Part shown: piece by piece, positions 14,778 to 18,210 of the stretch
How the letters are laid out: each line of letters begins with the position of its first letter
Position numbering within the stretch: position 1 is the first letter of the stretch
Source: Dictyostelium discoideum
Taxonomy: Eukaryota
Direction: 5' to 3'
Length of the DNA: 64,000 nucleotides
Assembly: GCA_000004695.1 (NCBI GenBank)
Contig: CM000152.2
Coordinates: 4,000,001-4,064,000, forward strand
Program-made: the position numbers and the translations under genes
Notes under the pieces: generated by a model
What the model was told of the DNA's origin: nothing
Databases searched by the model: none
What the model saw: only the letters and a program-made list of their open reading frames with translations

Positions 14778-14850
14778 GGGGATGTAGCTCAGATGGTAGA
14801 GCGCTCGCTTAGCATGCGAGAGGTAAAGGGATCGATACCCTTCTTCTCCA
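14778..14850 (+). tRNA. tRNA-Ala(AGC): tRNA-Ala, anticodon AGC
   Basis: GGGGATGTAGCTCAGATGGTAGAGCGCTCGCTTAGCATGCGAGAGGTAAAGGGATCGATACCCTTCTTCTCCA, 73 nt. Cloverleaf: D-stem GCTC/GAGC, anticodon stem CTCGC/GCGAG with loop TTAGCAT, T-stem AAGGG/CCCTT, G3:U70 alanine identity pair, A-box TAGCTCAGATGG, B-box GGATCGATACC. Confidence 0.9.
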
Positions 14851-14855
14851 TTTTT
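14851..14855 (+). terminator. RNA polymerase III terminator (T5 run) immediately after tRNA-Ala
   Basis: TTTTT directly 3' of the discriminator base. Confidence 0.7.
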
Positions 14856-14875
14856 ATTCCAATTAAATTTAGATC

Positions 14876-14887
14876 AAGTGTTCAATT
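14876..14887. repeat. left target-site duplication of TRE3 insertion
   Basis: AAGTGTTCAATT, identical to 18130..18141. Extends to ~16 bp allowing 1 indel. Confidence 0.6.
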
Positions 14888-14888
14888 T

Positions 14889-17800
14889 CTTCACCTTTTC
14901 AAATAAATAAACATAAGAAAAGATGGATATTATCACCTGGTACTGCAAATGACCATGAAGCAATCAATATTATCAATCATTTAATAACTAATCACAATAA
15001 CACATCAATCAATCAATTTACAAATTGGTCAAAAGTAAAATCAAAAATTATTAAAACTCTAAAAAACTATCAATATAACAAAGACAAACAAACTCAACGT
15101 GCAAAACAAATACTATTAGAAAAAGCAGCAAAATTCAAACATCTTGAAGAACAATGCATCGCTGAATACAATATTATATGTAACAAAAACAAATTACATC
15201 AAAACCACACAAACATATTAAAAAAACATATAAATGGAGAAATACCTAGCAAGTATCTATCAGCAATACTAAACAAAAGATCAAAAGATGCAAAAATTGA
15301 ATCAATCCAATGTGGTAACATCATTACATCCGACCCCGACCAAATTGAAAATGTGTTTGTTGAATTCTACACAAATCTATATAGCTTACAAATATGTTGT
15401 CCAATTACTCACCAGCTCATGCTAAACACATGGCCAATTATAAAAAATGAATATTGGAATGGTTTAGACTCACCATTTATACAAGATGAAGTTGAAGCTG
15501 CAATTAAAACCTGTAACCCCAACAAATCACCCGGTCCAGATGGCGTTACAAATGCATTCTACATTAATCATTTAAACCAAGTTAAACCAATTCTCACTAC
15601 ATTATTCAACGATATACTAGAAAATCCTCACCACATCACAACAGAATTCACCGAAGGTCTTATACACACAATATACAAGAAAGGCAACCCCTTACTCATA
15701 TCAAATCGTCGTCCCATTACACTTCTTAACACTGATTACAAGATCCTCTCAAAAGTAATCAATGCACGTCTTCTGAGAATACTTCCTTTCATCATCAACA
15801 ACAACCAAACTGGTTTCGTACCCCACAGATTCATCATAGACAACATCATCAACATCAACGAATTAATAAACTACCTCAAATCTAAAAACCTCCCTGGTAT
15901 CATCACACTATTTGACTTCTTTAAAGCATTTGATTCTATCTCTCACAATAGCATTAAAAGAACATTAATTCATATTGGAATACCAATAAAATTAATAAAT
16001 TTAATCCACAAGCTATTATCTGACTCACAAGCAAAAATTTCAATTAATGGTAAAACGACCAGAAAATTCGATATTAAAAGAGGTGTAAAACAAGGTGACC
16101 CAATCTCAGCCACTTTATTTGTAATTGTAATTGAAATATTAGCAAGAACAATAAATGCAGACAATTCAATAATTGGATTACCAGTTTCACCCAATCCACA
16201 AATTAATATCAAATTTACCCAATTTGCAGACGACTCTACAACATACAACATCAACTACGAACAACAACAACAATCAATCAAACATTTCGATAATTTCTGC
16301 GCTTCAACATCATCATCTTTAAATTTTGACAAAAGTGCAATAATAGAAATCAACCCCCACAAAATCGCTGATAAACACATAATAAACAACATTCCACAAT
16401 CAAAAAGAATTCCAATAACCAAAAAAGATCAATCAGAAAGAGTTCTTGGCTATTTCTTTAATCATAATGGTTTACATAGGAAATTACCCGAAACAATGAA
16501 AACACTGATTAAATCATTAGTGCTATGGAAAACTAGTGGTACAACATTAAAAACAAAAACAACCATCATAAACACCTACTCACTATCACCAATAACATAT
16601 TTATCATACCTTGAAGAATTTACAAAAGATGAAGAAATTCAAATTAATAAATTAATCTCATGGTTTATGAATTCTCCCGCAAATTCTGAATCACCAACTC
16701 TCAATACCAATTCCATTGAAAACAACACATCAACCATCCATTCACGTGCAAAAATACCTTTGATGTGTTATGATAGATCATTAAAACCATTAAAAGAAGG
16801 TGGTTGGGGTATGTGGAATATACAATTACGACAAGTTGCTCAAAAGATTTGGATATACAACAGATTTTTACTAATGCATAAATCTGCAAACAATTCAATA
16901 TACATGATAAGTTGGATGGATCAAATCATCAACAAATCAATCTCTTCTCCATACCTTATAAAAATCAAAAAAGAATGGGAAAACTATGCAACTCAAATTG
17001 GACATCTAAAAGATAAAGTTCAAATCCTACAACCAATATTAACAAAAAACCAACCCTCTCAAACATTAAACACAAATAATATTTCACTACCACCAACACT
17101 CAAAGAAATCTACTCGACAATACTAAACAATCACCAATGCAAATCAAAAGACTATATTGGCAAGAAATATTCAGATCTACTTCTTACTTCGCACCAACAA
17201 TCAATACAACTATTATGGAAATACACATACGACCAACTTTTTGTCAAAATTCAAAAATTAAAAGATCCAAAAGGCCGAGATACAATGCAAAGATTCCATG
17301 CTAGATGTCTTCCGATTAATCATCTACACAACAAAGTTTGCCCCATTTGCAACAATGAAATGAATAATGATCCCTATGGTCATTTGTTTTTCAATTGTCA
17401 GCACACAATCAACTTCATTAACCACGACAAATTAAAATATTTTATATATAAAAATTGCAATGGAAACAAAAACTGGTCACTAACAAAAAACCAAACAACA
17501 AAATTATACACACTCATCTATAAACCACAAACAAACAACAAAGCATTTAAACCAGATCCAACTATCAATATTAATTTTCATTTTGCAGAAAACGCACAAT
17601 ATAAAAAATACAGGTTCAACTGGAATTATATAAACACAAATCTTGATCTAGTCAGAACACATGCATATTGGAACATAATCTCATTAGTTATTCACCAAAT
17701 ATGGATATGGTTATGCAAATCATTATTTGATATCAATATAACTCAATCAATTGACAATTGGAACAACCAAATAAACAACACAACACTAGATTATGATATA

Positions 17801-18130
17801 TTAAAATCAAAATGGCACAAGCTAATAAGATTGGAATATTCAAGAACATTATCAAACTTTAACCAATACTCAATTAAAAACAACCTCACAAAAACTCAAA
17901 AAGAAACCCAATGGTCCGAAACCATCAAAAAATTTAAAAAAGAATGGAGCATAAACACAAATGAACCAATTCCAACAATTACACCACCAATTAATTATTA
18001 ATTACCTAATCTAAAATAACATACCATTTTATATTCACAAAAACTAAAAAACCTAAAATAAATAAATAAAAATAACATACTAATTGTATACTATAATAGT
18101 TTATTTATATCAAAAAAAAAAAAAAAAAAA
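14889..18130 (+). mobile_element. TRE3-type (tRNA-gene-targeted, downstream-inserting) non-LTR retrotransposon, 5'-truncated (~3.2 kb), ending in poly(A), flanked by target-site duplication
   Basis: An RT ORF is followed by a 3' UTR and A20 at 18111..18130. AAGTGTTCAATT occurs at both 14876..14887 and 18130..18141. The insertion lies ~38 bp 3' of the tRNA-Ala gene in the same orientation. Confidence 0.75.
15353..18001 (+). CDS. retrotransposon ORF2 (reverse transcriptase, LINE-like), 5' truncated / degenerate upstream
   Basis: RT motifs: PGPDGV, ITLLNTDYKILSKVINARL, FDFFKAFDSISH, GVKQGDPISATLF, FADDSTT (YxDD-type). The track start is a GTG; an upstream in-frame extension is broken. Confidence 0.85.
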   Translation: MFVEFYTNLYSLQICCPITHQLMLNTWPIIKNEYWNGLDSPFIQDEVEAAIKTCNPNKSPGPDGVTNAFYINHLNQVKPILTTLFNDILENPHHITTEFTEGLIHTIYKKGNPLLISNRRPITLLNTDYKILSKVINARLLRILPFIINNNQTGFVPHRFIIDNIININELINYLKSKNLPGIITLFDFFKAFDSISHNSIKRTLIHIGIPIKLINLIHKLLSDSQAKISINGKTTRKFDIKRGVKQGDPISATLFVIVIEILARTINADNSIIGLPVSPNPQINIKFTQFADDSTTYNINYEQQQQSIKHFDNFCASTSSSLNFDKSAIIEINPHKIADKHIINNIPQSKRIPITKKDQSERVLGYFFNHNGLHRKLPETMKTLIKSLVLWKTSGTTLKTKTTIINTYSLSPITYLSYLEEFTKDEEIQINKLISWFMNSPANSESPTLNTNSIENNTSTIHSRAKIPLMCYDRSLKPLKEGGWGMWNIQLRQVAQKIWIYNRFLLMHKSANNSIYMISWMDQIINKSISSPYLIKIKKEWENYATQIGHLKDKVQILQPILTKNQPSQTLNTNNISLPPTLKEIYSTILNNHQCKSKDYIGKKYSDLLLTSHQQSIQLLWKYTYDQLFVKIQKLKDPKGRDTMQRFHARCLPINHLHNKVCPICNNEMNNDPYGHLFFNCQHTINFINHDKLKYFIYKNCNGNKNWSLTKNQTTKLYTLIYKPQTNNKAFKPDPTININFHFAENAQYKKYRFNWNYINTNLDLVRTHAYWNIISLVIHQIWIWLCKSLFDINITQSIDNWNNQINNTTLDYDILKSKWHKLIRLEYSRTLSNFNQYSIKNNLTKTQKETQWSETIKKFKKEWSINTNEPIPTITPPINY

Positions 18131-18141
18131 AGTGTTCAATT
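18130..18141. repeat. right target-site duplication of TRE3 insertion
   Basis: AAGTGTTCAATT immediately after the element poly(A). Confidence 0.6.
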
Positions 18142-18142
18142 C

Positions 18143-18210
18143 TTGAATTGTTCAAAATCTACACCGCTTTTAGGTAAAAAAAAAAAAGAATTGTTCAAAA
18201 TCTGCAATTG
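18143..18210 (+). promoter_or_regulatory. two tandem ex-B-box-like motifs (GAATTGTTCAAAATCTNCA) downstream of tRNA-Ala, now displaced by the TRE3 insertion
   Basis: Copies at 18143..18161 and 18188..18206. GTTCAAAATC resembles the pol III B-box GGTTCGAATCC. Confidence 0.4.

Follow-up and report, generated by a model that had tools for sequence, protein, structure and literature searches.

A 5'-truncated TRE3-type retrotransposon and a 27-bp retrotransposon stub behind a tRNA-Ala(AGC) gene of Dictyostelium discoideum

Introduction

What has been inserted behind a tRNA-Ala(AGC) gene of Dictyostelium discoideum, how often, and what are the two short motifs that now lie beyond the insertion? The gene lies in a 64,000-nt stretch of the genome (contig CM000152.2, positions 4,000,001 to 4,064,000; hereafter the window, whose first letter is position 1) and is followed, in its own orientation, by a ~3.24-kb element of the TRE3 type (tRNA gene-targeted retroelement, 3' class), a non-long-terminal-repeat (non-LTR) retrotransposon. 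A first-pass annotation, made from the sequence alone, took the two motifs for a pair of external B (ex-B) boxes displaced by this element. Here, we show that the pair is a duplication produced by an independent, extremely 5'-truncated retro-insertion, and we argue that the locus very probably records two independent target-primed reverse transcription (TPRT) events in the TRE3 landing zone behind this gene. Descriptions of TRE3 date from 1999-2001 onward and already cover both its preference for landing downstream of tRNA genes and the 5' truncation frequent among its copies; the locus is an ordinary, already catalogued TRE3 landing site, with no departure from known TRE3 behavior.

Results

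Two inserts, each within a perfect duplication

Two inserts with poly(A) tails have landed no more than 60 bp past the 3' end of the tRNA gene, and a perfect duplication brackets each of them. The first is the ~3.24-kb element, tail included (14888-18129, +), which we delimited by blastn to a full-length copy at another D. discoideum locus (L001, 7915-11217) and by tblastn mapping; it starts 37-38 bp past the 3' end of the tRNA gene and shares its orientation. On either side stands a copy of the 12-mer AAGTGTTCAATT (14876-14887 and, directly behind the A-run, 18130-18141; both +). The second insert is a 27-bp retrotransposon stub (18161-18187, +), consisting of ACACCGCTTTTAGGT (15 nt) and A12, and it lies between the only two copies of the 16-mer GAATTGTTCAAAATCT (18145-18160 and 18188-18203; both +), which the first-pass annotation had read as its first and second B box. 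That annotation was right in placing two exact copies of a motif 3' of the large insertion; they are not adjacent repeats, the 27-bp insert lying between them.

A short repeat in AT-rich DNA could arise by chance, or it could belong to the ends of the element itself, although nothing beyond that prior possibility speaks for either explanation of the 12-bp repeat. AAGTGTTCAATT occurs exactly twice in the window, against a chance expectation of 0.09, and 0 of 100 shuffles reached two occurrences. Moreover, the 12-mer was not found in the full-length copies at L001 and at a further locus, L003. The corresponding empty sites provide the most direct evidence. Through the ortholog of the upstream neighbor gene, we located these sites in ACTFIW (L005, labeled D. 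discoideum) and ACTFIY (L006, labeled D. cf. discoideum), where the neighbor protein is 81% and 78% identical, respectively, to that of the window. Both loci carry the same tRNA-Ala(AGC), and both hold the 12-mer once, uninterrupted, as AAGTGTTCGATTC: L005 reads ...TTTAGATCAAGTGTTCGATTCTTGAAATGTTC... and, behind the tRNA, ...CATTTAGATCAAGTGTTCGATTCTTGAAATGTTC..., and L006 reads ...ATCAAGTGTTCGATTCC... and, behind the tRNA, ...TTAAATCAAGTGTTCGATTCCTTATTT.... Since AAGTGTTCAATT is single-copy and uninterrupted in these diverged relatives, it represents duplicated host DNA, and the 12-bp repeat is a genuine target-site duplication, as precise as the first-pass annotation had claimed. The probability left for a chance match or an element terminus is negligible. 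In addition, the window sequence (AX4), once both inserts and one copy of each duplication are removed, is colinear with L005 minus a small insert of its own.

The tRNA gene itself is not in doubt. ARAGORN and Rfam (RF00005, 58.1 bits, E=4.7e-11) agree with the first-pass annotation on a tRNA-Ala(AGC) gene at 14778-14850 (+), the sole tRNA gene within the window. It contains an internal B box, GGATCGATACC (14829-14839, +), and is followed directly by a T5 terminator for RNA polymerase III (Pol III) at 14851-14855, upstream of both insertions. The gene and its terminator are untouched by either one.

The stub derives from a second, extremely truncated insertion

The 16-bp motif is single-copy at L005 once that locus's own insert is removed, and the sequence that separates its two copies in the window resembles the 3' terminus of another retrotransposon. 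A 5'-truncated element of the P0023 family, situated behind tRNA-Lys(CUU) at L003, ends in ...AACAATACACCGCTTTTAGGT-A16 and is identical to the stub at 15/15 positions; a second member of this family at L007, 99% identical in the 3' untranslated region (UTR), ends in ...AACAATATACCGCTTTTAGGT-A18 and matches it at 14/15. These matches point to the extreme 3' end of a P0023/DDB_G0269266 family element as the source of the stub. The family is probably TRE3-C: it is the most divergent of the TRE3-behaving families, and its size is compatible with a 4734-bp consensus. The stub resembles TRE3-C, as so inferred, in its 3'-terminal sequence, its poly(A), its own duplication and its position in the TRE3 landing zone, and it departs from that element in retaining 15 nt of ~4.7 kb. 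A copy of this size would escape BLAST-based repeat annotation. A TRE3-A-like or TRE3-B-like 3' end was also considered as the origin and was rejected, as those families end in ...TTAATCCAATATT and ...TTTATTTATATC, respectively.

Could the stub have come in as a passenger of the 3.2-kb element, either through 3' transduction or because the enzyme switched templates within a single round of reverse transcription? A second independent stub, TACACCGCTTTTAGGT plus A15, is present at L001 11175-11205, bracketed by a different duplication, GTATTACCAAAA, and it shares with the stub of the window a position <30 bp from the 3' end of an element of the same family, as joint arrival would have it. (Because L001 holds the same short stub sequence, the blastn alignment of window 14883-18200 to L001 7915-11217 ran past the poly(A) of the element.) However, the spacer between the poly(A) of the element and the stub is host DNA colinear with L005, which rules out 3' transduction, and this spacer is wholly different between the window and L001. 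Each stub also has its own A-tail and its own perfect duplication (16 bp in the window, 12 bp at L001), and both sites simply fall inside the common TRE3 landing zone. We regard joint arrival as very unlikely; the motif pair is the duplication from an independent, extremely 5'-truncated retro-insertion.

The predicted ex-B box lies inside the 12-bp duplication

Where, then, is the ex-B box of this gene? The published ex-B core consensus of Dictyostelium tRNA genes is GTTCRAnYC (PMC3159450). It is matched by GTTCAATTC, which lies inside the 12-bp duplication and would occupy +30 to +38 past the tRNA end in the reconstructed empty site. The AX4 form of this match, AAGTGTTCAATTC, is kept as GTTCGATTC in both L005 and L006 while the surrounding spacer diverges, and the conserved block, AAGTGTTCRATTC, fits the published core. 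Position and conservation in three lineages thus argue for GTTCAATTC as the true ex-B box of the tRNA-Ala gene. The large insertion, which we assign below to TRE3-B, would then have split and duplicated the box, as opposed to landing upstream of it. Beside the tRNA gene there remains a near-copy, GTTCAATTT (14880-14888, +), that has lost the last C of the consensus; the sole intact match at the locus (18134-18142, +) is composed of the 3' duplication copy plus C18142 and stands ~3.28 kb from the gene. In its consensus match, its position and its conservation in two diverged lineages, the predicted box is like those of other Dictyostelium tRNA genes; it differs in being split and duplicated by an insertion in this genome, with a gene-side copy that lacks the final C.

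The first-pass annotation had assigned this role to the displaced pair. Were the two GAATTGTTCAAAATCTNCA motifs a native tandem ex-B pair of the tRNA gene that the TRE3 insertion moved 3', their GTTCAA, which equals bases one to six of a B box, would be explained, as would the weakly B-box-like character of the ancestral single motif of L005, ATGTTCAAAGCC. However, the motif as annotated, GTTCAAAAT, fails two positions (Y and C) of GTTCRAnYC, and 16 bp upstream the 12-bp duplication contains a match that is both better and conserved. The L005 ortholog has a single motif, and in the window the two copies agree at 16/16 positions and enclose 15 nt from the 3' end of a TRE3 family, complete with poly(A) tail. 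A native pair is therefore extremely unlikely, and what was described as displaced ex-B boxes is the 16-bp duplication of the second insertion.

The 3.2-kb element is a plain 5' truncation with an open frame

The open reading frame (ORF) of the element comprises 1042 codons plus a stop (14873-18001, stop 17999-18001, +). It crosses the 5' junction, and its first ~4 codons (IKCS) are host DNA. The shorter figure of 882 codons given previously was counted from an internal GTG, following an ORF-listing rule. Aligned to a GenBank 'pol' protein (AAD43057.1; P0131, 1275 aa), the frame is identical at 1032/1042 positions without gaps, covering residues 234-1275; element-derived residues begin at ~238 (ISSPFQ...), right behind the SLSDHNPIS motif that closes the endonuclease domain. 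Its best protein matches are from D. discoideum at 99% identity, including DDB_G0291958 and DDB_G0281297, in keeping with the identity of the window as D. discoideum nuclear DNA.

A Pfam scan of the 1042-aa frame detected only the reverse transcriptase (RT) domain RVT_1, with a FADD motif (15677-16372, +; hmmscan E=3e-30, residues 269-500), and no Exo_endo_phos domain; the full-length relatives P0001 and P0002 (98-99% identity) have both Exo_endo_phos (PF03372) and RVT_1 (PF00078). Translation and alignment further reveal a C-terminal zinc-finger-like motif, CPICNNEMNNDPYGHLFFNC (CX2C...HX4C; 17339-17398, +). A zinc finger (ZF) is the third ORF2 domain of TRE elements, whose order is APE-RT-ZF (PMC5006619). 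The poly(A) tail has 18-20 A (18112-18129, +). The A20 run that the first-pass annotation placed at the end of the element spans 18112-18131, its last two A overlapping the 12-bp duplication; another D. discoideum assembly (L004) has one A fewer in this run.

The full-length copy of the same family at L001 is ~5.30 kb long (~5842-11143), encodes ORF1 and an ORF2 with Exo_endo_phos and RVT_1, and lies directly behind tRNA-Lys(UUU). The match to the window begins at L001 ~7918, such that the window copy corresponds to the region from nt ~2080 to the 3' end. Within the element, the window and L001 copies are 98.9% identical, and 15 of 2766 compared columns hold a substitution that is private to the window. 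The promoter, 5' UTR, ORF1 and the whole APE endonuclease domain are absent. With these missing, the copy is non-autonomous, and the earlier description of a 5'-truncated, non-autonomous TRE3-type element downstream of tRNA-Ala and in its orientation is confirmed. At the 5' junction, host ...TTCAATT adjoins element ...ACATTTTCTTCACC with a 2-nt (TT) microhomology, which leaves this boundary uncertain by ~2 nt; short microhomology of this kind is usual at the 5' junctions of truncated non-LTR insertions. The element has simply been truncated from its 5' end as far as ORF2 residue ~238. Of the two states offered by the first-pass annotation for the 5' part, missing or frameshifted, only the former applies, as the frame is open throughout. 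We attribute the intact 1042-codon frame to youth and not to function.

Public annotations list this ORF2 remnant as a 'hypothetical protein', DDB_G0281297 (P0005), spliced to 914 aa; the gene model carries the private substitutions of the window copy, identifying it as the reference-genome model of this copy. ACTFIT_011244 (P0124, 1043 aa) is likewise a 'hypothetical protein'. It begins with MIKCS...; in this model, as in the open frame of the window, the host DNA that supplies the first residues takes in the ex-B box. We flag both models as truncated transposon ORF2 remnants.

Family and subfamily

To place the element, we mapped representative ORF2 proteins (tblastn) and tRNA scans onto every comparison locus. 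The architecture is that of a non-LTR element: a poly(A) tail (A18-20), a perfect 12-bp duplication and orthologous empty sites. With respect to the TRE3 domain set, RT and the zinc-finger motif are present in the window copy, and APE and ORF1 occur only in its full-length relatives. Members of the family lie downstream of, and parallel to, tRNA-Ala in the window, tRNA-Lys(UUU) at L001 and tRNA-Lys(CUU) at L003, the last in tandem behind another element, and the P0023 family at L003 is also downstream of and parallel to its tRNA gene. The ORF2 of the window element is 40-44% identical to P0012 and P0013, which are found behind tRNA genes, 33% identical to P0023, and 30% identical to P0036 and P0041. 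Elements of the P0036 type at L002 lie 48 bp upstream of tRNA-Thr in opposite orientation, which is TRE5 behavior. The P0041 cluster includes DDB_G0269056, listed as 'TRE5-A ORF2' in a dictyBase-derived table (PMC12405889, Table 2). The first-pass annotation had allowed that the RT might cluster with TRE5 or another family; by these pairwise comparisons, it groups with the families that behave as TRE3, and we classify the element as TRE3. With TRE5-A and TRE5 elements in general it shares ORF2 domain order and an association with tRNA genes, but those elements lie ~50 bp upstream of tRNA genes in opposite orientation, and their ORF2 is ~30% identical to that of the window.

Within TRE3, the most likely assignment is subfamily B, a non-LTR retrotransposon of the L1 clade. 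The family of the window element measures ~5.30 kb, compared with 5279 bp published for TRE3-B, and forms a cluster of ~42, compared with 43 published copies; the P0012 family measures 5233 bp (L002 5051-10283), compared with 5229 bp for TRE3-A, and forms a cluster of 79, compared with 67 published copies (PMC5006619, Table 1). Moreover, the window family's cluster contains DDB_G0291688, whose gene number is next to that of DDB_G0291686, named 'TRE3-B ORF2' (PMC12405889, Table 2). That the element is instead TRE3-A, C or D, or that the stub comes from TRE3-D and not TRE3-C, gains some credit from the indirect nature of the evidence for the letters and from the dependence of the ~5.30-kb estimate on the placement of a variable 5' end. 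Against this, the P0012 family is within 4 bp of the TRE3-A consensus length and is the more abundant one, the length of the window family is 20-25 bp off TRE3-B and ~70 bp off TRE3-A, and neither TRE3-C (4734 bp) nor TRE3-D (1559-bp partial consensus) suits a 5.3-kb element with intact full-length copies. The adjacent gene number also favors B, and we consider another lettering unlikely.

The position of the element agrees with this assignment. TRE3-B lands 34-188 bp downstream of tRNA genes and shares their orientation, and 5' truncation is typical, with 9/43 copies being full length (PMC5006619). The window copy lies 38 bp downstream of tRNA-Ala, inside this range and with both features on the + strand. 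It further resembles TRE3-B in its RT, C-terminal zinc-finger motif, poly(A) and target-site duplication, which is of variable length in these elements, and its ORF2 is 99% identical to the deposited TRE 'pol'. It differs in lying at the near end of the landing window, apparently inside the ex-B box and not downstream of it.

Insertions behind the same tRNA-Ala gene in other lineages

Both orthologous loci carry insertions of their own. At L005 3343-3479 (-), a 129-bp non-LTR fragment that ends in poly(A), ...GGTATTAAACCTTACAAT-A14, was inserted independently and has GAAATGTTC as its duplication. The nucleotide at which its poly(A) meets host DNA, 2 bp past the ex-B box, is exactly the one used by the AX4 stub, and its 3' end is unlike those of all three TRE3 families seen here; it may be TRE3-D. 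At L006 6300-7500 (-), the same tRNA-Ala is followed by yet another TRE3-like element, which is 5'-truncated, shows 45% identity to the P0012 family and is flanked by the duplication AAAGTATCATT. Further fragments follow it, and the L006 insertions are slightly further downstream than those of AX4. Three lineages thus show independent targeting of this tRNA-Ala gene, which is what one would expect of TRE3.

Discussion

From what was observed at the locus (its anatomy and two duplications, the empty site, where each copy was truncated, how the families are related and where the stub came from), we propose the following course of events, which follows the general mechanism of APE-type non-LTR elements. 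In one event (A), the bottom strand would have been nicked at +25/26 past the tRNA 3' end (5'-...ACTT/GATC-3', nick at the slash), and a TRE3 RNA, most likely from TRE3-B, reverse-transcribed from the exposed 3'-OH. Synthesis of complementary DNA (cDNA), or 5' joining, would have halted after ~3.2 kb at ORF2 codon ~238, right behind the SDH motif of the endonuclease. A top-strand cut 12 bp further on would account for the AAGTGTTCAATT duplication, along with the 2-nt microhomology, and would leave the near-copy GTTCAATTT beside the tRNA gene and the intact GTTCAATTC 3.28 kb away. In the other event (B), the bottom strand would have been nicked at +40/41 (5'-...AATTC/AAGA-3'), 15 bp downstream of the event A nick. 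The template would have been another TRE3 family's RNA, probably that of TRE3-C, of which the last 15 nt and A12 were copied, and cleavage of the second strand 16 bp away would have produced the GAATTGTTCAAAATCT duplication around the stub. In both events, the 5' end would have been joined after premature termination. Both copies were dead on arrival.

The large insertion appears fairly young, as judged by its perfect duplications, pure A-tail, intact 1042-codon frame and private substitutions of ~0.5%, and the first-pass view that it was recently inserted is borne out. Because the copy shows little private change, whereas the flanking spacers of AX4 and L005 differ strongly, we place its insertion much later than the split of AX4 from the ACTFIW and ACTFIY lineages.

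Extremely 5'-truncated TPRT products are familiar from mammalian L1, whose insertions can be as short as a few tens of nucleotides and also have poly(A), duplications of ~7-20 bp and 5' microhomology. L1, however, shows no targeting to genes transcribed by Pol III, whereas the two nicks of the present locus are both found within 45 bp of a tRNA gene end. Site choice through Pol III factors at B boxes has been tested experimentally only for TRE5-A (PMC5006619, PMC3159450).

Several points weigh against our interpretation. The proposal that TRE3 is guided to its sites by Pol III factors bound at a B box, whether internal or external, comes from the literature. Matches to GTTCRANYC are not enriched in the window (6, against 4.25 expected); this difference is not significant, and we rejected enrichment of the consensus as stand-alone evidence. 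As subfamily letters, B and C are the most likely ones on four grounds: consensus length, abundance, how far the families diverge from one another, and a single neighboring gene identifier. The structure is compatible with either order of events A and B. Finally, L005 and L006 are quite diverged, and they show the ancestral state and not a within-population polymorphism; the L004 assembly, which is 99.87% identical over 13 kb and has both insertions, belongs to the same lineage as the window and is uninformative on polymorphism.

The biological weight of the locus is small, since the element is of a known type and the genome is a reference genome. Its practical value is that of a fully resolved integration site, with both junctions and an orthologous empty site, at a tRNA gene that offers two further independent insertions in sister lineages. 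The locus also shows that a target-site duplication around a tiny stub can pass for a tandem regulatory motif. The one slightly new angle is the recurrence of 15-16-nt stubs together with the reuse of one nick position beside the ex-B box. Two independent stubs were present among the few loci examined, and the TRE3-B nick lies 4 bp before the box. We speculate, tentatively and with more doubt than confidence, that ultra-short stubs (15-16 nt of 3' UTR, with poly(A) and a target-site duplication of their own) are recurrent, unannotated TRE3 products at D. discoideum tRNA genes, and that the edges of the ex-B box are possibly preferred nick positions. If this were true genome-wide, TRE occupancy of tRNA genes would be undercounted, and the positions of stubs and duplications would form a nucleotide-resolution footprint of whatever binds the ex-B box during TRE3 targeting.

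Additional features of the window and the compared loci

Short terminal sequences also accompany other tRNA genes. Tandem ~75-nt repeats (...GAATTGGATAAAGCAATTATTAGTTGCTTCTCCTTGAGATGCTATATCTCATTTTATT...), each beside a T-run, occur at L002 10950-11200 and at L003 3040-3125 and 3690-3780, upstream of a + strand tRNA gene and on the opposite strand. They look like very short 3'-terminal stubs of the TRE5 type and so point to short stubs as a routine product of TREs as a whole. At L002, elements of the P0012 family form a tandem array that runs beyond the end of the locus.

Behind tRNA-Lys(UUU) at L001, two TRE3-B-like copies form a nested tandem (5804-5850, 11144-11230 and 15524-15560) with three sets of duplications, ACTATATTTTTAG, TTTTAGTATTACCAAAA and GTATTACCAAAA. 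Reconstructed in the simplest way, the full-length copy on the upstream side has GGTTCAAATCCCAG, which is perfectly B-box-like, at its start and within its own duplication; this sequence is either the host ex-B box or 5'-transduced flank of the source locus.

On the upstream side of the tRNA-Ala gene at L005, between it and the conserved neighbor gene, lies a gene with retroviral aspartyl-protease domains (RVP_2, gag-asp_proteas; 3982-6006), presumably an LTR retrotransposon. A TRE5-like fragment is found beyond it; the window has neither of the two upstream of its tRNA gene.

Elsewhere in the window, 18745-20019, 21484-22994 and 23591-26277 are tandemly duplicated gene blocks, 94-96% identical. 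According to the annotation of L004, blocks within 18745-26277 encode a CBM49 protein and a CBM49/cysteine-protease protein. Three further repeats of ~3 kb, 86-94% identical, occupy 46803-57432.

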